Assembly: GCA_029945665.1 (NCBI GenBank)
Contig: JAQSCZ010000120.1
Span: forward strand, 1,618 to 65,617
DNA length: 64,000 bases
From: a bacterium
Lineage (GTDB): Bacteria; Bacteroidota; Bacteroidia; NS11-12g; UBA955
Reading direction: 5' to 3'
The position numbers and the translations under genes were made by a program. Positions 1 to 32,819 of the stretch are shown here, in pieces (the first letter of the stretch is position 1; each line of letters opens with the position of its first letter). Below the pieces are notes generated by a model. It had not been told where the DNA came from, made no database searches, and was given only the letters and a program-made list of their open reading frames with translations.

Positions 1-1
1 A

Positions 2-181
2 GATATGCTCTATTTAGACAAAAAAACGATTGATGATATTGGACAGATTAGAGTCTTTAATGCTATCGGCACGCTAATGTATTCAGGTAATGAATTAAGT
101 ATTGATGTAAGTCGATTTCCATTAGGTATTTATTTCTTACATTGTAAAACGTCTATTTTCAAACTCGTAAAACTAGAATAA
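2..181 (+). CDS. 3' end of a T9SS type A sorting-domain protein (partial, runs off the left edge)
   Basis: Manual translation DMLYLDKKTIDDIGQIRVFNAIGTLMYSGNELSIDVSRFPLGIYFLHCKTSIFKLVKLE*; the ...IDVS..P.GIYF...KLVK tail is typical of a T9SS CTD. Confidence 0.8.
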   Translation, partial: DMLYLDKKTIDDIGQIRVFNAIGTLMYSGNELSIDVSRFPLGIYFLHCKTSIFKLVKLE

Positions 182-190
182 TAATTGATA

Positions 191-305
191 CTATTGCAAG
201 AAAAATGCAAGATTCTACTTTATCTTTTGCAAGAAATTTGTAGTGTAACAGTAAATTTGTATTTCCAAAAATCGCCACCTTCGCTAAGCGCTCAAGCCAT
301 TAAAG
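191..305 (+). repeat. attC-like cassette-boundary element A (left arm truncated, right core decayed to ATTAAAG)
   Basis: 191-291 matches 2368-2469 with 3 substitutions and 1 indel; lies immediately after the stop at 181. Confidence 0.8.
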
Positions 306-344
306 TGCATTTTATGAGACCATCAGGACAAACTGAAGCAGATT

Positions 345-1379
345 ATGAAAATTTTTCACGGTATAGCTAGAACAGCGTTTTGTATTTTATTTTCGACAAC
401 TTTTTTGAGTTGGAAAACGGAGAAGAAAGACAATGACTGGACAAATGATAAATTAAAAGGAGAAGTTAAATCTATTACAGAAAGGTATGTACTATCTATT
501 TCGCCATTCGACATATTCGAAAAACCTAAAGATTCTGCTCAGAAAAGTCAAATGAAGAAGGAAATGTTCTATGATCAAAAGGGCAACAAAATAGAATGGA
601 ATAGTATCAATAAAGATGGAAGCTTAGACTTTAAACGGAGATATAAATTTGATAAACAAGGAAATCTAATTGAACAGGGTAGTTATAATTTGGATGGGAG
701 TATCAAATATTTGTCTGTCTATACCTACAATGACAAAGGACAAAATATCGAAGAAGGGAAGTCATACCATTCAGCAGAAATTATAGAATCTAGAGGAACA
801 TTTAAATATGATGACAATGGCAATTTAATTGAATGGATTACATACAAATCTGATGAAGGTTTAATGAGTAAACTAACCTATAAATATGATGAAAGCGGAA
901 ATAAAATTGAATATATATATTTTAATTCTCGTGGAAATATAAAATTCAGATACACCTATAAATATGACAAAAGCCATAATTTAATTAGATGGGATAGTTA
1001 TGATTCTGTTAAACATTCGCTTGGAAAGGCAAGCTATAAGTATGATGATAAAGGAAACCAGATTGAATCAAAAAGATACAAATCAGATGGAAGTTTAGAA
1101 AATAAGGAAACCTCAAAATTTGATGACAAAGGAAATAAAATTAAATTTATCAGATACAATTCTGAGGGCAGTATAAATTATAATTGGGCATATAAGTATG
1201 ATGAATCAGGAAATATCATAGAATGGACTATCTATAATACTAAAAAAGATTCCAAGGCCAGATATTTAAAGTATAGTTATCAATATGATTATGATAAAAC
1301 AGGTAATTGGATTAAGAAAACTGAGTTTAAAAATGATGAGCTTATATTCATAATCGAACGTGACATTGTATATTTTTAA
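345..1379 (+). CDS. Exported YD-like repeat protein
   Basis: About 10 repeats of Y(K/T)YD(D/E)xGNxIE with roughly 24-aa period; N-terminal signal-like segment; C-terminal YDKTGNWIKK...ERDIVYF. Confidence 0.8.
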   Translation: MKIFHGIARTAFCILFSTTFLSWKTEKKDNDWTNDKLKGEVKSITERYVLSISPFDIFEKPKDSAQKSQMKKEMFYDQKGNKIEWNSINKDGSLDFKRRYKFDKQGNLIEQGSYNLDGSIKYLSVYTYNDKGQNIEEGKSYHSAEIIESRGTFKYDDNGNLIEWITYKSDEGLMSKLTYKYDESGNKIEYIYFNSRGNIKFRYTYKYDKSHNLIRWDSYDSVKHSLGKASYKYDDKGNQIESKRYKSDGSLENKETSKFDDKGNKIKFIRYNSEGSINYNWAYKYDESGNIIEWTIYNTKKDSKARYLKYSYQYDYDKTGNWIKKTEFKNDELIFIIERDIVYF

Positions 1380-1424
1380 TAGAAATTACATAGCATCTAA
1401 AAATAAAAAATAGATTAGAATGCC

Positions 1425-1555
1425 CAATAACAAAGTGCACTTGCGCAATGCTTGTTTTGTGGTTTGGAAAGTTCTGCTTCCCAACTACATTCGAATTTGA
1501 TGAAATGTTTTGCGGCTTCAACCTCCGCACTGCGCAAGCCCTCAAAAGGTTATGC
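1425..1555 (+). repeat. attC-like cassette-boundary element B (best preserved)
   Basis: CAATAAC (1425-1431) ... GTTATGC (1549-1555); inner inverted arms CTTGCGCAATGC (1440-1451) / GCACTGCGCAAG (1527-1538). Confidence 0.75.
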
Positions 1556-1599
1556 GTCAGCTTAAAAAACCGACAACAGAAAGAGAATAAAAAACAAAT

Positions 1600-1631
1600 G
1601 TTTCCAAAATTAGAAACTTTGAGTATCTTTG
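1600..1631 (+). promoter_or_regulatory. higBA promoter (-7 element TATCTTTG) with adjacent palindromic putative operator
   Basis: TATCTTTG at 1624-1631 fits the Bacteroidota TAnnTTTG consensus; GTTTC-N8-GAAAC at 1600-1617. Confidence 0.6.
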
Positions 1632-1657
1632 TGATGTTTAACAAATGACAGCAGTAA

Positions 1658-1999
1658 ATGAGATATTTTGAGACAAGGTTTATGGAAGAAGCAAACGAGT
1701 TTATTGCAGAACTTGACCAAAAGACTATCAAAAAAATATTTTATAACATTGATCTTGCAGAGCAGACGAATGACCCGAAATTATTCAAAAAATTACAAAA
1801 TGACATTTGGGAACTTCGGACTAAATTTGGTGGACTTCAAATTAGACTACTTGCGTTTTGGGACAAGACTGACAACAAACAAACTTTGGTAATTGCAACC
1901 CACGGTTTCATAAAGAAAGTAGACAAAGTTCCAGCAAACGAAATTGACCGAGCAGAAAGAATTAGAGATAAATATTTTCAGTACAAATTAAAAAATTAA
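1658..1999 (+). CDS. higB: Type II toxin, RelE/HigB (Gp49-like) family
   Basis: IWELRTKFGGLQIRLLAFW and ATHGFIKK..KVP..EI..A motifs; toxin precedes an HTH antitoxin. Confidence 0.85.
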   Translation: MRYFETRFMEEANEFIAELDQKTIKKIFYNIDLAEQTNDPKLFKKLQNDIWELRTKFGGLQIRLLAFWDKTDNKQTLVIATHGFIKKVDKVPANEIDRAERIRDKYFQYKLKN

Positions 2000-2003
2000 A
2001 AAA

Positions 2004-2330
2004 ATGGCAACCAAAGAAATCAAAACTTATTCGCTTACCGAAATGAAGGACAAGTATATCGGCAAGCTTGGGACAACTGACCGTGACGAGTATGAATACG
2101 AACTTCGCATGGATGTGCTTGGAAAAATGATTAAATCTGCAAGATTGGAACGCCGCTTGACACAAGAAGAACTTGGCAAGCTCGTTGGCGTACAGAAAGC
2201 TCAAATTTCTAAACTTGAAAGTAGTGCCAACAGCGCGACGATTGACACAGTTTTAAGGGTATTCAAAGCATTAAAAGCAGAGATTAATTTTAACGTTAAA
2301 CTCGAAGACAATTTTGTTAAACTTGCTTGA
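2004..2330 (+). CDS. higA: HigA-type XRE helix-turn-helix antitoxin
   Basis: IKSARLERRLTQEELGKLVGVQKAQISKLE HTH; starts 4 nt after the toxin stop. Confidence 0.85.
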   Translation: MATKEIKTYSLTEMKDKYIGKLGTTDRDEYEYELRMDVLGKMIKSARLERRLTQEELGKLVGVQKAQISKLESSANSATIDTVLRVFKALKAEINFNVKLEDNFVKLA

Positions 2331-2348
2331 CAGAAAAGAAAGCCGAAC

Positions 2349-2483
2349 CCATAACAGCCGTTTTGCGCTATTGCGAGAAAAAATGCAAAATTCTACTTTA
2401 TCTTTCGCAAGAAATTTGTAGTGTAACAGTAAATTTGTATTTCCAAAAATCGCCACCTTCGCTAAGCGCCCAAACCGTCAGCA
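2349..2483 (+). repeat. attC-like cassette-boundary element C
   Basis: CCATAAC (2349-2355) ... GTCAGCA (2477-2483, one change from GTTAGCA); imperfect inverted arms; near-identical to element A. Confidence 0.8.
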
Positions 2484-2561
2484 TTGATACTTAAAAAAAT
2501 CTCGGAATTTGGATGTTTGAGAAATATGTAATAACTTTATAGTCACAATTCAGACAAGAAT

Positions 2562-2806
2562 ATGGAAAATCCATCATCAAAATCGGAAATTCTAATGGAC
2601 TTAGATTAAGCAAGTCAATTCTCGAGAAATATAGTATCAATGAAAGAGTTGAAATTATTCTAGAAAAAGGAAAAATTATACTTAAACCAATCGAAATCCC
2701 GAGAAAGAATTGGGAAGCAGCCTTCCAAAAAATGCATTCGGAAAACGATGATCATTTGTTAGTAAACGATGTGTTTGACAATGAAACTTTTGTTGAGTGG
2801 AAATAA
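2562..2806 (+). pseudogene. mazE: MazE/AbrB-family antitoxin, frameshifted after codon 2
   Basis: ATG GAA AA, then in another frame SIIKIGNSNGLRLSKSILEKYSINERVEIILEKGKIILKPI..PRKNWEAAFQKMH...EWK*; IGNS.G.R is the AbrB-type motif. Confidence 0.85.
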
Positions 2807-3120
2807 TTTAGTATTCGATAGTTTTGGTCGACCTTGACCCGACTTTAGGCAGCGAAATAAAGAAGACAAGACCGTGTGTCATTGTTTAACCTGACGAGAT
2901 GAATAAGTATCTTAATACTATTGTCTTAGCTCCAATGACGACAAACATGAAAAAGTATCCTACCAGAGTAGCGGTTGAACATGATGGAAAAAAAGGAATG
3001 ATTGTTATCGACCAAATCCGAACAGTCGAGAAAATACAAATTCTAAAAGTATTAGGTAAACTAACAAAGTCCGAAATCAAGGCCTGTAAGGCCGTTCTTA
3101 AGGAAACATTTGTAGACTGA
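2797..3120 (+). pseudogene. mazF: MazF/PemK toxin with two in-frame stops
   Basis: GTG at 2797: MEII*YSIVLVDLDPTLGSEIKKTRPCVIV*PDEMNKYLNTIVLAPMT...DQIRTVEK; TAG 2809-2811 and TAA 2887-2889. Confidence 0.88.
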
Positions 3121-3130
3121 ACAAACCACT

Positions 3131-3263
3131 AATGCTATCAAAGGTTATAAAAAATGGCGGGTGAAGTACATGATTGAAAGCTTGTAACTCTCATCAGCAT
3201 TGGTGTTGGTTAACAAAAGACACCCTTGCAATCTGCCACAATTTATTCTCTCAACCTTTAGCA
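3131..3263 (+). repeat. attC-like cassette-boundary element D (degenerate)
   Basis: AATGCTATC (3131-3139) ... TTTAGCA (3257-3263); inner arms TGGCGGGT (3155-3162) / ATCTGCCA (3231-3238); begins 10 nt after the mazF stop. Confidence 0.6.
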
Positions 3264-3406
3264 ATTAAAAGTCGATTCATCCCCAAGAACAATGAGCATT
3301 AGCAAATCAAATCTTTTTTTCTCCAAAAAATGTTAAAAGGTAATTTTATAGTCATTTTTATTATATACTTCATTTGTTTTAAAAAAATAAGCCTAAGTTT
3401 GATAGT

Positions 3407-3817
3407 ATGAGACAATTAATTTATATTTTAGTGCTAGGACTATTACTGAGTAGTTGTAAAAAGTCCACTCCTTCACCCATTTCGGTGAATGATGGCACCT
3501 ATGTGGGGGAAGTTACAATGCTACCTTCAACCAACTATATTATGCTAGCTACTTTTGAAGTTAAGGCCATTTCTTATACAAAAATGAAACTATTATTTAG
3601 AAATGGTAATATTGTAGCTGAGGCAGATTTAAATGGTTCAAATTTTACGATCATCCCCACCAACTTCAAAATCAATGATGGTCAAACGGAATACCAAGGT
3701 ATAATTACAGGTGAAGGTTCATTTGGGAAAAACACAATAACTTTAAGATGGCATGAGGAGAGCTTAAGCGTTAAAAATTCTTACAGCGAATACAGCGGCA
3801 CTTTAACTAAATTTTAA
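3407..3817 (+). CDS. Hypothetical lipoprotein
   Basis: Lipobox LLLSS-C; TAAGTTTG promoter element at 3394-3401. Confidence 0.75.
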   Translation: MRQLIYILVLGLLLSSCKKSTPSPISVNDGTYVGEVTMLPSTNYIMLATFEVKAISYTKMKLLFRNGNIVAEADLNGSNFTIIPTNFKINDGQTEYQGIITGEGSFGKNTITLRWHEESLSVKNSYSEYSGTLTKF

Positions 3818-3830
3818 ACAGTTAGAGCAT

Positions 3831-4049
3831 TTAAAGTATCTCATCACCTTCATTCGAAAGCAACTCATTTTCCTTAGCTTCCATTTCAAGCTTTCTTTTT
3901 TTGATGAATTGAATCAAATAATCGACCCCTAGCATTATGGCAAAAATAGCCATAGCAATACCATAGAGTATTGAAACATCGCTGCTTCCTGGCGTACCTG
4001 CATAAAGAGAACTGGCACTTAACAAAAAGAATCCGAGTATTTTTTTCAT
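3831..4049 (-). CDS. Small membrane protein
   Basis: 72 aa: signal peptide, one TM helix, charged tail. Confidence 0.6.
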   Translation of the reverse strand: MKKILGFFLLSASSLYAGTPGSSDVSILYGIAMAIFAIMLGVDYLIQFIKKRKLEMEAKENELLSNEGDEIL

Positions 4050-4097
4050 GACACGTGAGTCATTTTAATCAAAGATAAAAAATAAAATACCGAAATC

Positions 4098-4943
4098 CTA
4101 TTTCTTATTCGAGAAACTATGAAGCGTTTCTTTCTCTTTAGCAGTCAAACTTTCAATACCCTTTTTATTTATCTTATCTAATAGTTTATCTACTTCCCAT
4201 TCATTTTCGCGTTTCTTGGCATTGTACTTATCCTCGATTGTATAGGCTTGCTTGTTTGTTTTAAAAGGATTATCAACCAACATCCAGTTGGGTTTATAAA
4301 TAATAATAAAGATAAAAATAAGAGCGGGTACTAGAATTAAAACAATGGGTAAGCTATTTGTATTTAAACATTCGGGCTGTATGGCAATGGCAATTAATAA
4401 ACCCACCAAACCACCCCCTAAATGTGCTTCATGCCCAATGGCATCTGTTTGCGACTTAATGCCATAGATAGTGTATAGAACATACAATAAACCATAGATC
4501 CAAGCAGGCATGTAATAGGGTAAACCGAAAAAGCCTATCTCTAAACCCGGGAAAACTGCAATACTAGCAAATACAATTCCACAGATAGCGCCAGAAGCAC
4601 CAACAGCACTGTAATTACCATGGTGGCGATGAATATAAAGTGCCAATAAATTGCCACCAATTAAACTGGCAAAGTAAAGGAGTAAAAAATTTATTTCACC
4701 GAGTCCGTTTTCCAACACTTCGCCAAAACACCACAGACTCAACATATTTAAAATAAGATGTGGCCAACTTACGTGAAGAAAACCCGCTGTAACTAATCTT
4801 TTATAATCGCGATTGATTAATATTGGATCGACTTCGAAAAGGTAGGCTTGGAAAAATGTAAAATTAGTGAACCCTTTATAAGATATAATCAGGTTGATTA
4901 AAATAAGGAATGTACTAATTAACCCTATGTTTTCTGTTATCAT
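4098..4943 (-). CDS. Rhomboid-family intramembrane serine protease
   Basis: FLH...HLILNM, VGASGA, AHLGG motifs; C-terminal VDKLLDKINKKGIESLT tail. Confidence 0.92.
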   Translation of the reverse strand: MITENIGLISTFLILINLIISYKGFTNFTFFQAYLFEVDPILINRDYKRLVTAGFLHVSWPHLILNMLSLWCFGEVLENGLGEINFLLLYFASLIGGNLLALYIHRHHGNYSAVGASGAICGIVFASIAVFPGLEIGFFGLPYYMPAWIYGLLYVLYTIYGIKSQTDAIGHEAHLGGGLVGLLIAIAIQPECLNTNSLPIVLILVPALIFIFIIIYKPNWMLVDNPFKTNKQAYTIEDKYNAKKRENEWEVDKLLDKINKKGIESLTAKEKETLHSFSNKK

Positions 4944-5076
4944 AATTTAATTTTACTTGTATGAAGTAGGGAAACAAACATAAAATATTTATTTTACAAA
5001 ATACATTCGATTTAAAAAATAGACTTCTACAAACCAATACCATCCTCACAATACTTATGCACCTACTTATTCATTT

Positions 5077-7374
5077 TTGCAAAAAAATACCTTTATTCGC
5101 ATGACCATTATGTCCACTACAAAACAACAGCAAGATGCTTTAGATTACCATAGCATGGGCCGTCCCGGCAAGATTGAAGTGATTCCTACAAAACCTACGC
5201 AAACCAAACGCGATTTAAGTTTAGCCTATTCACCTGGCGTTGCCGAGCCTTGCCTTAGAATTGCCGAGAACCCTGAAGACATTTATAAATATACCGCCAA
5301 AGGCAATTTAGTTGCTGTAATTAGTAACGGTACGGCCGTATTGGGTCTTGGCGATATTGGCCCAGAAGCATCCAAACCTGTGATGGAGGGCAAAGGGGTA
5401 CTTTTCAAAATATTTGCCGACATCGATGTTTTTGACATTGAATTAAACACCAAAGATGTGGAAGGTTTTATTGCTTGTGTGAAAGCCCTTGAACCCACAT
5501 TTGGCGGCATCAATTTAGAAGACATCAAAGCACCAGAGTGTTTTGAAATTGAAACACGCTTGAGAGAGGAGTTAAAAATACCCATTATGCACGATGATCA
5601 ACACGGCACAGCCATAATAAGTGGTGCGGCCATGTTGAATGCACTTGAACTCGTAAACAAGCCTATAGATCAAATAAAAATGGTTGTAAATGGGGCTGGC
5701 GCCAGTGCCATGAGTTGCAGTAAATTATTTATTGCATTGGGTGTTAAAAAAGAAAATCTATTAATGCTTGATAGCAAAGGCACTTTAAATACACGAAGAA
5801 CTGATTTAGATAAATACAAGACTTATTTCGCTGTAGAAACCAACATTGACACCCTTGAGGATGCCATGGTAGGTGCCGATGTTTTTGTTGGTTTATCGAA
5901 AGCGAATATTTTGAATCAAGCCATGATCAAAAGCATGGCGAAAGATCCCATTGTATTTGCAATGGCCAATCCAGATCCTGAAATTGCCTACGAATTAGCA
6001 ATTGCTGCGCGCGAGGATATTATATTTGCTACTGGTAGAAGTGATTATCCAAACCAAGTTAACAATGTATTGGGATTCCCATTTATTTTCAGAGGAGCTT
6101 TGGATGTGCGCGCCACAACGATTAATGAGGAAATGAAATTGGCTGCTGTAAGAGCCATTGCTAGTTTAGCAAAAGAGCCAGTACCCGATTCAGTGATGAA
6201 AGCATACAACGAATCGAATGTTGAGTTTAGCAGAACTTATATTATACCAAAACCAATTGATCCACGTTTAATAGAAGCAGTAAGTCCGGCAGTAGCTAAA
6301 GCGGCCATGGACAGCGGTGTAGCAAAAAATCCAATTTTAGATTGGGACAAATACAAACTAGAATTAAGAAACCGACTAGGTCTTGATAATAGATTTATAA
6401 GACGAATAATGACGCAAGCCCGTCAAAATCCAAAACGTGTGGTATTTGCCGAGGCTGATAATGTAAAGATTTTAAAAGCTGCTCAGATAGCCAAAGAAGA
6501 AGGCATAGCCATTCCAATATTATTGGGTAACAAAGAAAAAATTACAGCCTTATTAGAAGAATATGCAATTGATTTAGGCAATGTTAGCATTATTGATCCA
6601 TTAATGGAGGATGCCAAACGTGAAGTGTATGGAGAAAAGTTTTTTGCTGGTCGCCAACGCAAAGGCATCAATGTTTATGAAGCGAGTAAATTGATGCGCG
6701 ATCGCAACTATTATGGATGCATGATGGTGAATGAAGGAGAAGGCGATGCTTTTATATCTGGACTTACCAAAAATTATCCTAAATCTTTGAAACCAGCCAT
6801 GCAAATTGTTGGTCGCGAGCAAGGCATTACAAAGATTGCAGGCATGTATATTATCATGACTAAAAAAGGACCCTACTTTTTTGCAGACACTACTGTGAAT
6901 ATTGACCCTACTGTTCAGGAGTTAATTGAGATTACAAAGATGACCCACGCAGAAGTAAAGAAACTTGGCGTTAAACCCGTAATAGCCATGTTGAGTTATA
7001 GCAATTTTGGCAGTGCCAAAGGCGAAGTACCAGTTAAAACAACCGAAGCAGTGGCCTACCTGCATAAGAACAATCCAGAGATTACAGTAGATGGTGATAT
7101 TCAAGCGAATTTTGCGATGAATAACGAAATGCTGAAGGAGAATTTTCCCTTTAGTACTTTAGTAGATAAAGAGGTGAATACTTTTATATTTCCAAACTTA
7201 GCAGCGGGCAATATTGCTTATAAATTCGCTCAGAGTTTTGGTGCTGCAGAGAGCATGGGCCCAGTACTATTAGGTTTCAATAAATCTGTACACTTTCTTC
7301 AACTAGGAAGCAGTGTAAGAGAGATAGTGAACATGGTAGCTGTGGCGGTTATTGATGCACATGGGAAGAAATAG
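5077..7374 (+). CDS. maeB: NADP-dependent malic enzyme with PTA-like C-terminal domain (true start probably 5101 or 5110)
   Basis: [44 protein letters not shown]; [12 protein letters not shown] in the PTA domain. Confidence 0.97.
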
Positions 7375-7382
7375 GCATGAAC

Positions 7383-7416
7383 AAAAAAAATGCGGTTTTT
7401 AAAGCCGCATTTTTTT
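7383..7416 (+). terminator. Intrinsic terminator after maeB
   Basis: AAAAAAAATGCGG-tttttaaag-CCGCATTTTTTT hairpin with U tract. Confidence 0.8.
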
Positions 7417-7464
7417 AAATAATTAATATGAGTTCGGGTTAATTATATCAATTAATCCTGATGC

Positions 7465-8040
7465 ATCAAATATTTTAATCTTATCAATTTTCTTCTCCTT
7501 TAGCTTCACTGCGACTTCTTGGTTTGTTTGGGCATAAAGGAGACAAACCTAGCCAAAGGCGCTCTCATAAGCTTGCGAATAATAGTCTACTATGCATAGG
7601 AAATTTCAATTCATCTTCTCGCACAGGTAGGCCCTTCAACCCTGACTATGCATTCTTGGATTCAGACGCCGGTTTCGGTTCCTTAATATATTTTAACTTT
7701 ACTGACGTAATTCGGTTTAAGTATATCATTTAAATATAGTATATCAAATATTTTAATCACATTTATTTTCTTCTCCTTTTTGTTTGGGCAAAAAGGAGAC
7801 AAAAAGCCCACCACGCATATAAAATTTCAATTGGTCTTCACGCGCAGGCTCACCCTTCATCCCTGACCAAAATGAAATTTTTACGCATGCGTGGACCCAA
7901 CGCGCAGATCCTGCCTTCGATAAAAGTTGTACAATTTTAATAGGTAGTGGTTTTGGTTAAGGCTATTTTTATTTGCATAAATCTTCATCCCTGAGCAATT
8001 GAAATTTTTACGGATGCGCAGACCCAGACCGCGCATCCGT
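7465..8040. repeat. Three degenerate copies of a structured intergenic repeat
   Basis: Shared blocks ATCAAATATTTTAATC, TTTTCTTCTCCTT, TTTGTTTGGGCAnAAAGGAGACAAA, AAATTTCAATT, CTTCAnCCCTGA at about 7465-7646, 7743-7911 and 7983-8040 (partial). Confidence 0.75.
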
Positions 8041-8187
8041 CCTTATATGCCATTTTTAATTGCAATTTATTTACTTCGATTATCTCCTTTTTTTCTAATT
8101 TACATGAGATTGGAGCAAAAGATCGTCAAAACTAGATTTAAATTGAATATATTTCCTGAACCTAACTCACTTAATAAATAACTCTCT

Positions 8188-10749
8188 CTACTTTACTTCT
8201 AAAGCTTGTTTAACAAGCAATACAATATAATTTCTATGCTCTTTGGTATCACCAGTAGATGTTAACAAGGCCGTTTGCATTTGTTTTTGAATGCTTTGTA
8301 ATTGGGCCGTTATTTTTGCTTTCGAAATATTATCATAAAAAGGATAGTCTAACGCTGCACTTAAATAGCCAATATATTCTATCTGCAAATTCTGACGATA
8401 GGTATTAACAGTGGTGGCCATATCAGCTTGAAAAATAGCGTTGGTTAAGTCTTTCATCATTTCTCCTAACTCATATTTATTGCCATATAGTTTACTATCT
8501 GTTAAACGTTCTAAAGTACTAGGGTGCAATAAATGCATTAGTACCGACCGCTGTATGTTTAACACTCTGTCGTGCAACTTAGGATCTTCACCAGTACTAA
8601 AGAAATTAAAACCTCTTCTTTGTGATTGTAAGTAGGCCGCCAAATCGGTTGGAACTTCTAATGCACTGGGTGCAAAAACAAGGTCAGTCAAGGCTTTCAT
8701 AGCAGCTTTTTGTGTCTCGTATGGAACAACAGTGTAAGGCTTAACTAAACTGTTCTGATTGCTAAAGCTTCTATCAACATATACACCTCCAATATAGCGA
8801 CTAATAACACCTGCTTGCACACCCCACTCACCAGTTAAAACAGCAAAATTGCTTTTTAATTCTTGGAAACTTCTATTGCCCTTGCCATACTCTGTCAACA
8901 AATTCGTTTGCAGGCTTTTTATCAAGGTAATTCTATCTTTTGCATAACCTACAGCATCGTTACTCATATCGCCAATCATTACACGAGGATCAATGGCTTT
9001 ACCTGGACTTCGCATATCATCGGCATCGTTACCAAAAGCCAAATCAGGCTCGGTACTGCGCATTAATATTTTTTCTCTGCGGGACAAATCAGCAGCCGCA
9101 TCACTCTCTTCATAATACCCAAACTCTATGGCCCATAAATCGTAAGGACCTGGCTTATCCGTATAATATTGGCATTTAACACCTTTTTTATTACTGAAAT
9201 TAACGGCAGGATAATCCATGACACTACCAATTAATCCTTCACTACTGGTTTTAGCCATGTCGTATAATTCGGCCGGTGAATGCAATTGGGTTGCTTTCAT
9301 GTTGTGATTTAAACCCAATGTATGACCGACTTCGTGCAAGACTAAATAATACAAAGATTCCTTTAAATAAGTATCAACCTCTACCTGACTAGCGCCATTC
9401 ATGGCCAATATTTGCAACCCTAATAAATTTTGTGAGTGCATGTAATCACCTGCCTCACAGGCTGAGTGATTGCCTTCTGCAATCTCATTGTTCAACCAGT
9501 CCATACCAGCCTTGTCAAATACCTTTTGTGACTTTATACGGTTGGTTAGAAACACCCACTCAAACATAATATCAGCTCCTAAAATCTCACCAGTTCTTGG
9601 ATTCACAAAGCTCGGTCCATAACCACCAAATGGAGGCTCAGGACTACTGGTCCAACGCAATACATTGTATCTTATATCACCAGCATCCCATGTGGCCGTA
9701 TCGGGTTGTTCAAAAATTTGAATTGCATTCTTAAAACCTGCTTTTTCGAACGCGATGTTCCATTGCAGGATAGCTGCTTTAATCGTTGGACGCAATTCAG
9801 TTGGTGTTGTTTTTTCTATCCACCAAGTAATCGGTTTTATAGGCTCAGAAAGCGCTGCATTTTTATCCTTTTTTTCTAATCTCCAACGGTGAATTAAATC
9901 TTTAAAATTAATGGCATTTGTGGTTGTCATATCGTTAACTTGGGTCATAAAATAACCAATGCGCGGATCATCTAAACGCGCTTGAAAAGCATCTGTTGGC
10001 ATTTCTATAAAACTGTGCTGCAACAAAATTTCGACATAACGACCATCGGTAATTGCAGAGCTTCCAGTGCCTTTAGAAGCAGGGTCGTCATAAACATACT
10101 TAACAATAATATCAGTGTTTTCTGGATAATTTTTAACCGTGTGATATCGGGTTTTAGTTCTACTTAACATTCCCAAATTAAAACCAGGACCAAATGGATT
10201 ATTAGATGGTGTTTTTATTTGATACAACGTTTCGCTTAATAATAGATTATCAGCTTCAATGAGGTACTCTCCTTTTGCTTCATCCATTGCAACAATTTTT
10301 TCGCTGGCCATTACTGCATTGGTAATATTAGCATCTGCTGCTTTAGAAATATTATTACTTTTATCGAAATAAAAATTGGTATTTACCGTGGTGAATTCTA
10401 ATTGACTATAATATTTAGAGATTTTAAAAATTTTATTATCGCGGAAAGTCCCTTTGTTATGGCCGGTTGTAGAGTTGCCATTTTCGACATAACTAAAATA
10501 AATAAACTCTTTCTCTAATTGATCTTTTCTAATCAACATCATTAAGTTACCATTTACTGTATCGCGATACAAAGTGAGTAAGCCATCGATTTTTTTACAG
10601 CGTTTTACTTTGTCGGCAATGGTAGCCATTGTTGCTGCTGGTTTCGCCGGCTCGGTGTTGGCTTTATCGTCCTTTTTCTGAGCGAACACACTTGTAAAGG
10701 TGAGCGTGAAAGCTAAAAGAACAAGTAGTTTATTTTTCATTATGCGCAT
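8188..10749 (-). CDS. Exported zinc-dependent metalloprotease (DUF5117/DUF4953, EcxA-like)
   Basis: HEVGHTLGLNHN metzincin motif, SVMDY Met-turn, DPRIGYF, signal peptide. Confidence 0.9.
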   Translation of the reverse strand: MRIMKNKLLVLLAFTLTFTSVFAQKKDDKANTEPAKPAATMATIADKVKRCKKIDGLLTLYRDTVNGNLMMLIRKDQLEKEFIYFSYVENGNSTTGHNKGTFRDNKIFKISKYYSQLEFTTVNTNFYFDKSNNISKAADANITNAVMASEKIVAMDEAKGEYLIEADNLLLSETLYQIKTPSNNPFGPGFNLGMLSRTKTRYHTVKNYPENTDIIVKYVYDDPASKGTGSSAITDGRYVEILLQHSFIEMPTDAFQARLDDPRIGYFMTQVNDMTTTNAINFKDLIHRWRLEKKDKNAALSEPIKPITWWIEKTTPTELRPTIKAAILQWNIAFEKAGFKNAIQIFEQPDTATWDAGDIRYNVLRWTSSPEPPFGGYGPSFVNPRTGEILGADIMFEWVFLTNRIKSQKVFDKAGMDWLNNEIAEGNHSACEAGDYMHSQNLLGLQILAMNGASQVEVDTYLKESLYYLVLHEVGHTLGLNHNMKATQLHSPAELYDMAKTSSEGLIGSVMDYPAVNFSNKKGVKCQYYTDKPGPYDLWAIEFGYYEESDAAADLSRREKILMRSTEPDLAFGNDADDMRSPGKAIDPRVMIGDMSNDAVGYAKDRITLIKSLQTNLLTEYGKGNRSFQELKSNFAVLTGEWGVQAGVISRYIGGVYVDRSFSNQNSLVKPYTVVPYETQKAAMKALTDLVFAPSALEVPTDLAAYLQSQRRGFNFFSTGEDPKLHDRVLNIQRSVLMHLLHPSTLERLTDSKLYGNKYELGEMMKDLTNAIFQADMATTVNTYRQNLQIEYIGYLSAALDYPFYDNISKAKITAQLQSIQKQMQTALLTSTGDTKEHRNYIVLLVKQALEVK

Positions 10750-10844
10750 ATTTTTTATTAAATAGGATGCGCAAAATAATACAAAATGAGAATTAATCGG
10801 GATAAAGACCCAATTAATAGAGACAAAAAAGAAGACTTATTCGA

Positions 10845-11099
10845 CTAAATTATATTTGGCGTATCCTTAAAAACAAAATAAATAAGAATCGCTATTAGGG
10901 TAATACCGAGCATGGCCAAAGGTACAAGCCATGTTTTCTTATTCCCATAAATAATGGCCAAACCGGCGTATATAAGTAACAGTGGCCAAAATTTAAACAA
11001 AATATCCCAATCCAAATTTAATAAATCAAAATTGCGCAGCAATAGCAAGGCTCCTAATAGTGTAAGAATTAATCCAGCAGTAAAATTTTGATTTTTCAT
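10845..11099 (-). CDS. LiaF/LiaI-like small membrane protein
   Basis: GLILTLLGALLLL..F...WPLLLI pattern; overlaps the PspC gene by 4 nt. Confidence 0.75.
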   Translation of the reverse strand: MKNQNFTAGLILTLLGALLLLRNFDLLNLDWDILFKFWPLLLIYAGLAIIYGNKKTWLVPLAMLGITLIAILIYFVFKDTPNII

Positions 11100-11548
11100 G
11101 AGATATTATCTTTGTTTTTTTTATTTTTTTGAAAAAGCAGTCCCAAACCAATAATTACCAAAACCACAGGCCAAAGCTTTTCAATATTGAAAGCTTTTAC
11201 CAAATTATTTAGTAACAAAAGTGCACCACCACTGATAAGAATCAAACCAAAGATTGTGCGATTGGTATCATCTGTTCCATTACTAGCCAAATCTGCCTGT
11301 TGAAAGGCATCAAAACTGTTCTCACGCGTTTGTTCGGAATGCGACTCACGTGTATCAAACTCAAAGGGCACTTTGGGTATAACAACTAGAAAAATTAAAT
11401 AAATGAAAAAACTACTACCCCCTGCTAACAGTAGGGCAATAAATACGAATCGAAATACAATGGGATCAATATTAAAATATTCGCCCAAACCTCCGCACAC
11501 CCCACTTATTACGCGGTGAATCCTGCTTCTGTAGAGTTTCTTATTCAT
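11096..11548 (-). CDS. PspC domain protein
   Basis: KKLYRSR..RVISGVCGGLGEYFNIDP. Confidence 0.9.
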   Translation of the reverse strand: MNKKLYRSRIHRVISGVCGGLGEYFNIDPIVFRFVFIALLLAGGSSFFIYLIFLVVIPKVPFEFDTRESHSEQTRENSFDAFQQADLASNGTDDTNRTIFGLILISGGALLLLNNLVKAFNIEKLWPVVLVIIGLGLLFQKNKKNKDNIS

Positions 11549-11613
11549 TTTATCTTTACAAACTTATATAAGTTTTTTGTTGTTACATACTTTTTAGAAT
11601 TATTTTTGCCGAT

Positions 11614-13305
11614 ATGTTAAAGCAAATCATCGAATGTGTGCCGAATTTCAGTGAAGGCAATGACCCCAATATTATCAAACAAATTACAAATGCAATTGAA
11701 AGCGTTGAAGGTGTTATGCTTTTACATGTTGATATGGGAAAGGCTACTAACAGAACAGTTGTAACCTTTGCAGGAGAGCCCCAAAAAGTAATAAACGCTG
11801 CATTTTTAGGTATACAAAAAGCCGCAGAATTGATTGACATGCGCAAGCACAAAGGCGAGCATCCGAGAATGGGTGCTACAGATGTTTGTCCACTGGTACC
11901 TGTCAGCGGAATAAATATGGCTGAATGTGTGGCTTGGGCGATAAAATTAGCTGAGCGTGTAGGTAAAGAATTGGCCATTCCCGTATACCTTTACGAAGAG
12001 GCTCAAATCAATAAAGTCCGTTCAAATTTATCTATTATTAGAGCTGGAGAATATGAAGGATTTGCAAAAAAAATAACCTTACCTGAATGGCAACCTGACT
12101 TTGGTCCTGCCGAACTTCCTTTAAAACATGGAGCAACAGTGATTGGTGCTAGAGATTTTTTAATTGCATACAATATCAATCTCAATACCAAATCGACACG
12201 TATTGCCAATCGCATAGCATTTGATGTGCGAGAAGCCGGCCGTGTAAAACGCGAGGGCAATCCCATAACAGGTAAAATTGTAAAAGATGCAAATGGCGAA
12301 GAAGTAAGAATACCAGGCACTTTAAAAGCAGTAAAAGCCATTGGTTGGTACATTGAAGAATATGGCATGGCGCAAATAAGCATGAACCTTACCAATTACA
12401 AAATAACATCAGTGCACCAAGCATTTGATGAGGTATGTAACAAAGGCAATGAAAGAGGGGTGCGCATTACAGGCAGTGAATTGGTTGGATTGGTTCCATT
12501 AGGGCCATTGCTTGATGCCGGAAGATATTACTTAAACAAGCAAGGCAGAAGCACTGGTGTTAGTGAATCCGAACTAATAGACATTGCTATACAATCTTTG
12601 GGTCTTAATCAGCTTGGTGCGTTTAATCCAAAAGAAAGAATCATTGAATACGTGCTAGAGAAAAAATCAAACAAGCAATTGGTGGACATGAGCATAAGAG
12701 CATTTGCCAACGAAACAGCAAGCGAAAGTGCTGCGCCTGGCGGTGGCTCTGTGAGCGCTTTATCGGCTGCATTAGGCGTTAGTTTGGGTACTATGGTGGC
12801 CAATTTAAGTGCTGATAAAAGAGGTTGGGAAGAAAGAACAAAAGAATTTTCTGATTGGGCTGAGCAAGGTCAAAGTTTAAAAGATGAATTATTATTCTTA
12901 ATAGATGAAGATACCAATTCATTTAATGCGATTATGAATGCTTTGCAATTACCAAAAGAAACCGAAGCGGAAAAAGATTTTAGAAAAACGGCCTTGGAAA
13001 ATGCCTCTATTTATGCCACCGAGGTGCCACTTAGAACCATGAAAGTAGCATTCAAATGTATCCCACTACTTAAATACATGGTAGAGAATGGCAACCCCAA
13101 TAGTGTGACAGATGCTGCGGTTGGCTTATTATGTATTAAAACAGCGGTACGAGGCGCATATTTTAATGTAATGGTGAATGCCAAAGGATTGAGCACAACA
13201 GATAAAGCCAAAGAATTAGCATCCGAGGCTAAAAGTATTTTGAAACAAAATCATACTGAAATTGATAGTATACTTGATAAAGTAGAGTCGACCTTAGCGT
13301 TTTAA
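11614..13305 (+). CDS. ftcD: Glutamate formiminotransferase / formiminotetrahydrofolate cyclodeaminase
   Basis: IECVPNFSEG, HPRMGATDVCP; C-terminal SAAPGGGSVSA cyclodeaminase domain. Confidence 0.95.
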   Translation: MLKQIIECVPNFSEGNDPNIIKQITNAIESVEGVMLLHVDMGKATNRTVVTFAGEPQKVINAAFLGIQKAAELIDMRKHKGEHPRMGATDVCPLVPVSGINMAECVAWAIKLAERVGKELAIPVYLYEEAQINKVRSNLSIIRAGEYEGFAKKITLPEWQPDFGPAELPLKHGATVIGARDFLIAYNINLNTKSTRIANRIAFDVREAGRVKREGNPITGKIVKDANGEEVRIPGTLKAVKAIGWYIEEYGMAQISMNLTNYKITSVHQAFDEVCNKGNERGVRITGSELVGLVPLGPLLDAGRYYLNKQGRSTGVSESELIDIAIQSLGLNQLGAFNPKERIIEYVLEKKSNKQLVDMSIRAFANETASESAAPGGGSVSALSAALGVSLGTMVANLSADKRGWEERTKEFSDWAEQGQSLKDELLFLIDEDTNSFNAIMNALQLPKETEAEKDFRKTALENASIYATEVPLRTMKVAFKCIPLLKYMVENGNPNSVTDAAVGLLCIKTAVRGAYFNVMVNAKGLSTTDKAKELASEAKSILKQNHTEIDSILDKVESTLAF

Positions 13306-27857: not shown

Positions 27858-28658
27858 ATGCTAAACAAATTTTTAACATATATAATTATACTATTCATTG
27901 CCGCTTCCTGTAAAAACCGTGATGGCAAAAATGATTGCCCCACAAATATTGACCTCAGTGCTAATTTTACAATTCAACAAGATTTGGGTTTTACAGATTT
28001 GGATAAAATTGATAGGTATACTGAATTAAATAATGATACTGTTTATTTAATAAAATATCTTCATCCAGATAGTACCATTGAATTTCAAGATATCAGGCTT
28101 AGATTTAGAACATCTGAGACAAATAAAAAGTGCGAGTGGACAATTAGTGGTGATCCTACAATTAGAAAAGGATATGATATAGAAGTTGACTTTTCAGGTG
28201 TATTTGGTACACTTCAAGCTACATGCACTAAAGAATTTGATCCATGGAAAGAATGTTTCCCTGATTTAACTGGATTTGATACAGTCAAGCGAAATTTTCA
28301 TTTCGTTGTAAAAGAAAATCCTTCCTTTTTTGGTCAATATTTTGGATATAATGAGGATAATCCGAGTGATACCTTTACTATCGTAATTGGATTTTTTAAT
28401 GAACAAGGACACCCTGATAATGATATTATTTCTATTGGCAACTTTCCTAAATCATTTAAATATTATCAAACTGGTTTACGCTTTAGTTACTCAGAATTTT
28501 ACTTTAGAAATTTTTCAGATGGTAGCGCAAAATTTGCACACGGTTACACTAGTAAAAATGGGAAAGAAATAGTGATAGATTATATCCATAATAATATTAA
28601 TAGTGACAATACAATTACATATGTTAATCGAAAATTTGTTGGTAAAAAAATAAAATAA
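27858..28658 (+). CDS. Lipoprotein, copy 1
   Basis: Lipobox IAAS-C; paralog at 32019-32819. Confidence 0.8.
   Translation: MLNKFLTYIIILFIAASCKNRDGKNDCPTNIDLSANFTIQQDLGFTDLDKIDRYTELNNDTVYLIKYLHPDSTIEFQDIRLRFRTSETNKKCEWTISGDPTIRKGYDIEVDFSGVFGTLQATCTKEFDPWKECFPDLTGFDTVKRNFHFVVKENPSFFGQYFGYNEDNPSDTFTIVIGFFNEQGHPDNDIISIGNFPKSFKYYQTGLRFSYSEFYFRNFSDGSAKFAHGYTSKNGKEIVIDYIHNNINSDNTITYVNRKFVGKKIK
27972..28656 (+). repeat. 685-bp direct repeat, copy 1
   Basis: Identical by eye to 32133-32817 (offset 4161). Confidence 0.92.
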
Positions 28659-32018: not shown

Positions 32019-32819
32019 ATGCTTACTAAAAAATTTATATGTTATATAATCATTCTTTTAATTGCAATTTCTTGTAAAAAAAAGCAGAATGCTAATTGCC
32101 CTACAAATATTGACCTTAGTGCTAATTTCACTATTCAACAAGATTTGGGTTTTACAGATTTGGATAAAATTGATAGGTATACTGAATTAAATAATGATAC
32201 TGTTTATTTAATAAAATATCTTCATCCAGATAGTACCATTGAATTTCAAGATATCAGGCTTAGATTTAGAACATCTGAGACAAATAAAAAGTGCGAGTGG
32301 ACAATTAGTGGTGATCCTACAATTAGAAAAGGATATGATATAGAAGTTGACTTTTCAGGTGTATTTGGTACACTTCAAGCTACATGCACTAAAGAATTTG
32401 ATCCATGGAAAGAATGTTTCCCTGATTTAACTGGATTTGATACAGTCAAGCGAAATTTTCATTTCGTTGTAAAAGAAAATCCTTCCTTTTTTGGTCAATA
32501 TTTTGGATATAATGAGGATAATCCGAGTGATACCTTTACTATCGTAATTGGATTTTTTAATGAACAAGGACACCCTGATAATGATATTATTTCTATTGGC
32601 AACTTTCCTAAATCATTTAAATATTATCAAACTGGTTTACGCTTTAGTTACTCAGAATTTTACTTTAGAAATTTTTCAGATGGTAGCGCAAAATTTGCAC
32701 ACGGTTACACTAGTAAAAATGGGAAAGAAATAGTGATAGATTATATCCATAATAATATTAATAGTGACAATACAATTACATATGTTAATCGAAAATTTGT
32801 TGGTAAAAAAATAAAATGA
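32019..32819 (+). CDS. Lipoprotein, copy 2
   Basis: Lipobox IAIS-C; protein identical to copy 1 from CPTNIDL onward. Confidence 0.8.
   Translation: MLTKKFICYIIILLIAISCKKKQNANCPTNIDLSANFTIQQDLGFTDLDKIDRYTELNNDTVYLIKYLHPDSTIEFQDIRLRFRTSETNKKCEWTISGDPTIRKGYDIEVDFSGVFGTLQATCTKEFDPWKECFPDLTGFDTVKRNFHFVVKENPSFFGQYFGYNEDNPSDTFTIVIGFFNEQGHPDNDIISIGNFPKSFKYYQTGLRFSYSEFYFRNFSDGSAKFAHGYTSKNGKEIVIDYIHNNINSDNTITYVNRKFVGKKIK
32133..32817 (+). repeat. 685-bp direct repeat, copy 2
   Basis: Identical by eye to 27972-28656. Confidence 0.92.

Follow-up and report, generated by a model that had tools for sequence, protein, structure and literature searches.

The stretch of DNA analysed here, called the window throughout, comprises 64,000 nucleotides (nt) of a Bacteroidota genome (GTDB lineage Bacteroidia; NS11-12g; UBA955; assembly GCA_029945665.1), namely positions 1618-65617 of contig JAQSCZ010000120.1 on the forward strand (G000:C120:1618-65617, G000 being the window's genome). 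Its first 3266 nt hold a tandem array of gene cassettes parted by imperfect palindromes that resemble the attC sites of integrons, and we analysed the complementarity between the start and the end of these cassettes. Each attC-like site runs from a left core, TAAC (R''), to a right core, GTTA (R'); a cassette begins at the R' core of one site and ends at the R'' core of the next. The cassette genes of the window are co-oriented, and genes and sites share one strand.

The cassette array at the start of the window

The features of the array are as follows, with sites numbered S0 to S4 and scored with R1, one of two covariance models (R1 for the long site class, with 138 positions and 27 pairs; R2 for the short class):

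G000:C120:465-603 (L009), about 1 kb upstream of the window: S0, attC-like site, well preserved (R1 102.6 bits)
1..181 (open reading frame (ORF) 2..181), + strand: tail of a secreted-protein gene with a type-9 secretion sorting tail, in the cassette starting at S0
185..298, + strand: S1, remnant of an attC-like site of repeat family D4, 5' arm and R'' lost
299..313, + strand: start of the YD/RHS cassette (R' core and extension); the core is ATT, not GTT
345..1379, + strand: RHS/YD-repeat lipoprotein-like cassette gene, 344 amino acids (aa) (PF05593, E 4.7e-8)
1417..1431, + strand: end of the YD cassette (R'' extension and TAAC core), register fixed by R1 alignment
1422..1558, + strand: S2, attC-like site (TAAC, stem, GTTA; R1 31.7 bits, E 2.8e-6 in an unfiltered scan of 8 kb)
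1549..1563, + strand: start of the higBA cassette (R' core and extension); homology with the cassettes of genomes G008 and G018 begins here
1658..2330, + strand: higB-like (113 aa, Gp49/RelE type; PF05973, E 1e-15) and higA-like (108 aa, helix-turn-helix; PF01381, E 4.4e-10) genes
2340..2355, + strand: end of the higBA cassette (R'' extension and TAAC core); the G008/G018 homology stops at this AAC
2346..2486, + strand: S3, attC-like site with R' core GTC (R1 15.1 bits, E 0.028)
2477..2485, + strand: start of the mazEF cassette (R' core GTC and extension), pairing with 3131-3139
2899..3120, + strand: broken mazF/PemK-type toxin gene, a 73-aa ORF covering profile positions 32-108 of 109 (PF02452, E 2.3e-12)
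3130..3266, + strand: S4, decayed last attC-like site (R'' 3131-3139 with core ATC; R' core TTT at 3257)
3257..3817, + strand: post-array sequence with a 136-aa lipoprotein-like ORF (3407-3817) that has no Pfam family

The match of the first gene tail to PF18962 (E 8.7e-5) lies below the cut-off of that family, and the antitoxin frame upstream of the broken mazF/PemK-type gene is likewise interrupted. S1 (201-298) and S3 (2379-2476) are 96% identical over 98 nt, and the identity stops exactly one base before the ATT/GTC core. The original prediction, an earlier reading of this DNA from its letters only, had placed the last R'' at 3131-3139. This register was upheld by global alignment of S4 to the intact site C18:45-182 of the same genome (z 5.2), with AAC mutated to ATC; R1 gave S4 17.1 bits in a shifted register. 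A last site at 3124-3209 with its R'' at 3124-3126, proposed by a heuristic scan for AAC...GTT, was overruled by the alignment to the C18 site. R1 detected no further site after S4 up to window position 8000, and the sequence at 3257..3817 is probably the original flank of the array rather than a cassette. A search of window positions 1-12000 against Rfam returned no family match and one chance snoRNA match (E 0.91).

Contig C120 carries five sites, four in the window and S0, and no recombinase gene as far as the end of the contig, which lies 1.6 kb upstream of the window. Because the window begins at C120 position 1618, the array runs off the contig start; it may continue on another contig. 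The assembly of G000 (98.8% complete) consists of 126 contigs and breaks at the arrays. A second sample, the public run X2, contains the same array in the same order.

Complementarity between the ends of a cassette

For each site we took R' as the 20 nt from the G of GTT and R'' as the 20 nt ending at the C of AAC, and scored their pairing by core-anchored alignment. R' of one site with R'' of the adjacent next site forms a self pair, that is, the two ends of one cassette. Locus L071 (a duplicate of L055) and the third sites of L063 and L050, both cut by a contig end, were dropped before counting. In G000, the 26 self pairs had a mean score of 9.48 (median 10.75), compared to 4.27 for 1,130 cross pairs and 4.75 for 34 same-site pairs, and a score of at least 9.5 was reached by 18/26 self pairs versus 10/1,130 cross pairs. 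An independent set of 11 other Bacteroidota loci gave means of 9.78 for self (n=23), 4.96 for cross (n=1,537) and 5.51 for same-site pairs (n=40), and none of 100,000 random draws reached the observed self mean. With both sets combined, the five variable positions 5-9 all matched in 29 of 48 self pairs, 90 of 5,354 cross pairs and 2 of 74 same-site pairs; a match at nine of nine variable positions was seen in 19/48 self pairs versus 1/5,354 cross pairs. Taken singly, positions 5-9 match in only 27-56% of cross pairings. The complementarity of a cassette start with its own end is real as a class. The original prediction had staked its case on such a genome-wide comparison; self pairing came out far above cross pairing, and the outcome it had named as counting against it, self pairing no better than pairing between different cassettes, did not occur.

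All six end sequences that had been named for the three cassettes of the window stand where they had been placed, at 1549-1563 and 2340-2355 (higBA), 2477-2485 and 3131-3139 (mazEF) and 299-313 and 1417-1431 (YD), and the count of 10/15 given for the YD pair is correct. Each start had been said to pair better with its own end than with R'' of the site in which it now resides, and this is borne out by scores of 9.5 versus 5.0 for higBA, 6.0 versus 3.5 for YD and 5.0 versus 2.0 for mazEF. Within the array, the best or tied-best partner of each window cassette start is its own end.

The three pairs of the window, taken alone, might reflect chance together with the conserved GTTA and TAAC cores that are common to all sites, an explanation to which we give very little credence. 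The higBA score is equalled by only 10 of the 1,130 cross pairs (top 0.9%). The plain mazEF score of 5.0, which 374/1,130 cross pairs reach, is low because both of its cores are mutated (GTC and ATC); at the variable positions the pair matches 5/5, reached by 1.7% of the 5,354 cross pairs, and 7/9 over nine variable positions, reached by 2.1%. The YD pair matches at 2/5 and 5/9, levels that 50% and 18% of cross pairings attain. Thus the higBA and mazEF pairs are above chance (at about 1-2%), and the YD pair is indistinguishable from it. Against the signal across the family, with none of the random draws reaching it, chance is rejected for the class and stands only for the YD pair. As a separate observation, S0 is the only site of its array whose own R'' and R' are mutually complementary (score 8.5), like those of a site that has not undergone splitting.

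How far the pairing extends was measured on 33 of the 51 adjacent pairs, those with 8 or more matches in the first nine positions. Among these 33 pairs, complementarity stands at 76-91% for positions 12-15 and drops to background (9-27%) for positions 16-20. Position 10 is paired in 48%, and position 11 in none of the 33, with A in R' standing opposite C in R'' in 26 pairs and opposite G in 7. From this profile, the outer stem consists of 9-10 bp, a fixed non-pair and then 4 bp. A passage in PMC3053210 describes attC as an imperfect palindrome of 57-141 bp between an inverse core (...AAC) and a core (GTT...), with 7-bp cores defining the site; this definition, together with general knowledge of the field, is our source for the canonical pairing limit of 7 bp. 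The outer stem found here is clearly longer, with complementarity reaching position 15, as the original prediction had proposed in claiming terminal pairing beyond 7 bp. On the bottom strand, the A/C at position 11 would be a G.T wobble, which hints that this is the strand that folds.

The same borders delimit the cassette as a unit of homology. Relatives of the higBA cassette occur in 21 other genomes of the family, and the homology between the window and G008 and G018 begins at the GTT core and stops at the AAC core. At position 5 of the paired ends, the window and G008 have T.A in one and G.C in the other, both sides having changed.

End pairing also touches the order of contigs. The R' of the last site on C104 and the R'' of the first site on C18 (minus strand) score 12.5, the second-highest value among the 1,130 cross pairs, and the 3' end of C104 and C18 are probably neighbouring contigs. 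On the minus strand of C53 (3347-18815, L010), two sites 15.2 kb apart have R' and R'' extensions that match at 19/22 positions (score 15.0). If this interval is one cassette, it holds about 12 genes, far above the usual size of integron cassettes; among them are three PF00144 serine hydrolases, an S41 peptidase, a C92 amidase, two secreted proteins with a type-9 secretion system tail and an AraC regulator.

The site family and the recombinase beside it

The sites are imperfect palindromes of 100-148 nt. From left to right they comprise the TAAC core, a 1-nt spacer, one arm of a covarying stem of about 24 bp, a variable middle, the other arm, a 5-6-nt spacer and the GTTA core. AAC and GTT are invariant or nearly so, and the purine/pyrimidine pattern of attC cores (RYYYAAC, GTTRRRY) is only loosely kept. 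Scanning G000 for AAC...GTT with paired arms located arrays on the small contigs C53, C110, C104, C72, C18, C117, C121 and C19; the scan is strand-blind, since its motif is its own reverse complement, and noisy, its 216 merged hits being mostly terminators. R1 and R2 were built separately because MAFFT misaligned the short class when run on all 24 seed sites. At E<=1, R1 matched G000 in at least 25 places and R2 in at least 14. In these whole-genome scans 150 of 913 and 150 of 1,337 candidates, respectively, were scored, and the G000 site list is incomplete for this reason; scans of the array contigs with filters off brought up further sites. R2 added no contigs beyond C53 and C110. On C72, a third, shorter class of site with a spacer of about 68 nt was observed (4899-4988 and 6744-6833); the cassettes neighbouring it share a conserved start and show no end complementarity.

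The stem of the sites covaries. Aligning 34 sites taken from other genomes showed changes on both sides in 22 of 23 stem pairs, and 89% of stem cells are paired compared to 29-40% with slid partners, values reached by none of 500 shuffles; the alignment was fitted to the model structure, which somewhat favours the stem. R1 sites were found in 89 of the 125 genomes of the window's family, in 61 of the 77 of good quality, and in 13 of its 15 genera.

For the canonical integron integrase IntI, we detected no TIGR02249 match over the cut-off in G000, and none over the cut-off or at E 1e-40 in the 125 family genomes (77 of them high-quality). The best TIGR02249 match of G000 is a 350-aa tyrosine recombinase encoded beside an array at C104:152-1204 (L013), which scores 212.4 bits against a cut-off of 265 and fails. 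It passes NCBIfam NF040815, an XerA-type model named "site-specific tyrosine recombinase/integron integrase", with 223.8 bits (cut-off 220). Other Xer-like genes are also present in G000. Among solved structures, XerA (5hxy, 134.5 bits) and an archaeal Xer (4a8e) match best by sequence, with IntI4 on a par at 133.5 bits; by predicted fold, IntI4 (2a3v, E 2.1e-18) is nearest, followed by XerA. Where residues 176-242 of the IntI4 chain stand (67 aa), the recombinase has residues 245-269 (25 aa), and TIGR02249 positions 180-236 are unmatched. With 25 instead of 67 residues, the recombinase lacks the IntI insert (about 35 aa near patch III). It has instead a conserved N-terminal extension of about 75 residues, with a predicted order of strand-strand-helix-strand-strand-helix (mean predicted local distance difference test score 83).

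On C104, a 47-nt hairpin lies 40 nt past the recombinase stop codon and ends in GTTA (position 1292). The bases that follow it complement R'' of the first attC-like site (6306), 5 kb downstream. The interval between, C104:1292-6427, is the first cassette after the hairpin; it holds three genes, one of them for a 1069-aa protein with a nucleoside triphosphatase (NTPase)-like N-terminus and repeats, possibly a defence gene. The minus strand of C117 (5813-5879, L016) shows the start of a second array with a 50-nt attI-like hairpin that C104 also carries, and no recombinase gene beside it.

The association is not confined to G000. Homologues of the recombinase were collected from 51 loci in Pedobacter, Flavobacterium, Saprospirales, Cytophagales, Vicingaceae and other Bacteroidota (L045, with an internal stop, was left out of the protein alignment). 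Across 38 recombinase loci R1 found 47 matches, 46 on the strand of the gene and 45 downstream of it, spread over 18 loci and several orders; 15 of the 20 loci without a match have at most 371 nt after the gene. In 17 of the 18 loci, a sequence complementary to the first site's R'' occurs once, 88-246 nt past the recombinase stop (the best match scoring 9-13 and the next one 5-9); an A/T-rich motif and local repeats immediately precede it, and the first cassette joins there at GTTA. This junction is an attI-like site. In the main recombinase subfamily (55-77% identity) the gene points into the array. A second subfamily (38-41% identity; G050:C50:34542-35567, G116:C55:2456-3502 and G117:C11:61515-62561) is transcribed away from it, like classical intI. 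Within the family of the window, the recombinase is present at E 1e-60 in 37 of 125 genomes, and 34 of those 37 carry sites. We infer that the recombinase acts on these arrays.

Origin of the arrays and relation to known systems

We consider it likely that window positions 1-3266 are the far, decaying end of an integron-type cassette array that depends on this Bacteroidota tyrosine recombinase and not on a classical IntI. Strand exchange would occur at G|TT. Exchange at this point would make every array site a chimera, with the R'' core and the body from the left cassette and the TT and about 12 further bases from the right one; by this arrangement the first 15 bases of a cassette would be the missing outer arm of the site at its own 3' end. 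Excision and closure of a circle would bring the two arms together, and as single strands they would form the outer stem, 9-10 bp followed by a further 4 bp, with the conserved non-pair at positions 10-11. One arm would have about the length covered by a single monomer of a Xer/Cre-type recombinase. The likely enzyme is the recombinase closest to XerA and IntI, with its N-terminal domain of about 75 aa and without the IntI insert, encoded directly upstream of arrays and followed by the candidate attI.

In integrons, the two ends of a cassette are the halves of one outer stem, which is present only in the excised circle. The chimeric nature of array sites in integrons is described in a passage of PMC4889954. 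The features that appear to be new are how long the outer stem is and what form it takes, together with a Bacteroidota platform that lacks the IntI insert. On whether this is an undescribed integron class across Bacteroidota, defined by a XerA/IntI-like integrase with a new N-terminal domain in place of the insert and by attC sites that require a split outer stem of 15 nt, formed in the circular cassette alone, our judgement is evenly balanced. The original prediction had read the units as integron cassettes inserted as circles; the cassette-type units and the sites chimeric at G|TT stood, whereas no canonical IntI platform accompanies them and the YD pair is at chance.

Several observations weigh against an integron-type origin or against parts of it. 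Self pairs below 9.5 amount to 8/26 in G000 and 8/23 in the other loci, and besides the YD pair, the S0-to-S1 pair gives no pairing signal (score 3.0). Site bodies do not travel with the cassettes: the body after the TAAC of the higBA cassette is unrelated between the window and G008, and near-identical bodies in G000 carry different R'' extensions. That bodies and cassettes assort apart calls for either homogenisation of the bodies inside genomes or exchange at R'' too. The wobbles of the 24-bp stem choose no strand (81 favour the bottom, 50 the top), and only extension positions 10-11 show a clear preference for one strand. The spacers of that stem are asymmetric, and no bulged bases were seen in it, fixed mismatches being present instead. 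Folded as bottom strands, the sites of the window taken alone are no better than shuffles (z -1.28 for S2, +0.82, +0.71 and +0.57 for the others), so folding energy is no detector here; S0 alone folds better than shuffles (z -4.37), and the window sites are decayed copies. R1 found no site at 4 recombinase loci with at least 4.8 kb of downstream sequence, and sites also occur in 55 of the 88 family genomes without the recombinase (E 1e-60). Finally, no cassette circle or excision junction was seen in the contigs of four public runs. An X5 contig joining position 1568 to 2329 was rejected as too weak to count, with 26 bases on one side and 90% likeness.

It is improbable that these are ordinary attC-site clusters without an integron-integrase (CALINs), made by a classical IntI that has since been lost or was left unassembled, with the Xer-like recombinase as a bystander. 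Such an origin would fit the sites in recombinase-negative genomes, the lack of a recombinase on the window's stretch of a contig that is cut 1.6 kb upstream, and an assembly broken at its arrays, and passages in PMC8618304 and PMC9668308 report integrons from Bacteroidota. However, 89 of the 125 family genomes carry sites while none has a TIGR02249 match at E 1e-40 or over the cut-off. A bystander also sits poorly with sites that share the strand of the Xer-like gene and lie downstream of it at 18 loci from several orders, and with the fixed position past that gene where the first cassette is joined in 17 of them.

Very improbable, in our judgement, are small transposon-like units with 15-bp terminal inverted repeats that insert into TAAC/GTTA within a repeated palindrome. 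Cassette ends do form inverted repeats of about 15 nt, and site bodies do assort independently of cassettes. Yet the repeats are specific to each cassette and still complementary, in 29/48 pairs versus 1.7% of cross pairings, and repeats that differ while remaining complementary suggest that selection acts on pairing and not on a sequence bound by a protein. The scan of the cassette genes turned up no transposase, and the first cassette adjoins an attI-like site next to the gene for a tyrosine recombinase; the hallmarks of transposons and of miniature inverted-repeat transposable elements were not found in these respects.

That the pairing acts in RNA, through pairing transcript ends or palindromes serving as terminators or processing sites, and reflects transcript stability is scarcely credible: window genes and sites share a strand and the site stem shows the covariation expected of an RNA helix, but the sense A opposite C at position 11 in 26/33 pairs is no RNA pair (antisense would give G.U), homology of orthologous cassettes stops exactly at the GTT and AAC cores, the array start is fixed beside the recombinase gene, and Rfam gave no match in the region searched.

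Sedentary chromosomal integrons such as those of Vibrio come close to the arrays described here. Shared with them are tandem co-oriented cassettes rich in toxin-antitoxin pairs, a tyrosine recombinase gene with an attI-type junction at one array end, and the common occurrence of arrays without an integrase; cassettes parted by imperfect palindromes between AAC and GTT cores and chimeric array sites are likewise features of such integrons, according to passages in PMC3053210 and PMC4889954, respectively. In contrast, the recombinase here lacks the insert of about 35 aa and has the extra N-terminal domain; the gene of the main subfamily points in the same direction as the cassettes, with the attI-like site after its stop; the outer (R) stem has 9-10 + 4 bp with a fixed non-pair instead of a 7-bp core; the spacers measure 1 versus 5-6 nt, without visible bulged stem bases; and some cassettes are very large (5 and 15 kb). 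An attI-type site directly after the integrase gene and followed by an attC array is described for archaeal and attI-downstream integrons in part of Ghaly et al. 2022 (PMC9668308). The integrases in that part of the paper carry the IntI-specific additional domain, which the recombinase here does not.

Compared to XerA, XerC and XerD resolvases, the recombinase has XerA as its best sequence match, passes NF040815 and aligns in its catalytic domain without a large gap. It differs from them in standing beside cassette arrays and not beside a dif site, in its extra N-terminal domain and in having IntI4 as its nearest fold. The pdif (Xer) modules of Acinetobacter plasmids have ends that are inverted repeats of recombinase sites shared with their neighbours, and their arms are conserved sequences to which proteins bind, on 28-bp sites in double-stranded form. 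The arms found here instead vary by cassette, covary and flank a palindrome of 100-140 nt. The conserved 28-bp sites with fixed XerC/XerD arms that mark Xer/dif or pdif systems were not found among these cassettes, as the arms differ between them.

Searches of open-access papers gave no account of arrays of this kind or of an integrase role for this recombinase; supplementary tables of papers may list CALINs in Bacteroidota. From this phylum, a passage in PMC9024848 gives as earlier known only In0 elements and one complete integron in Salinibacter ruber, and a passage in bioRxiv 10.1101/2024.07.02.601686 lists Bacteroidota among the clades previously without integrons. Part of PMC8138268 describes an integron-like subgroup in which the insert is "not fully conserved", so that proteins of the present kind may already be catalogued. 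A cassette system in most genomes of one family and in several orders would fill the integron gap in Bacteroidota. If this is indeed an undescribed integron class, the recombinase works without an insert thought essential for attC recombination, and standard integron finders that require the IntI insert would miss the system. Such a system would also raise the question whether the insert is truly required for recombination of folded sites or can be replaced by another domain. In practical terms, the 15-nt complementarity of start and end identifies genuine cassette borders and reveals cassettes whose neighbour has been lost, and it can order the contigs of fragmented arrays, the join of C104 to C18 being one prediction. 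The cassettes themselves, with toxin-antitoxin pairs, large NTPase genes and hydrolases, form a gene pool worth cataloguing.

Outside the array, the window contains further repeats. Short direct repeats of families D5 and D7 lie at 7433-8044, and contig depth in run X2 rises to 212 at 7801-8100, compared to about 13 around it, marking a small repeat that is common in that metagenome. A 300-nt direct repeat is present at 27934-28233 and 32095-32394, its two copies being 99% identical and 4161 nt apart.

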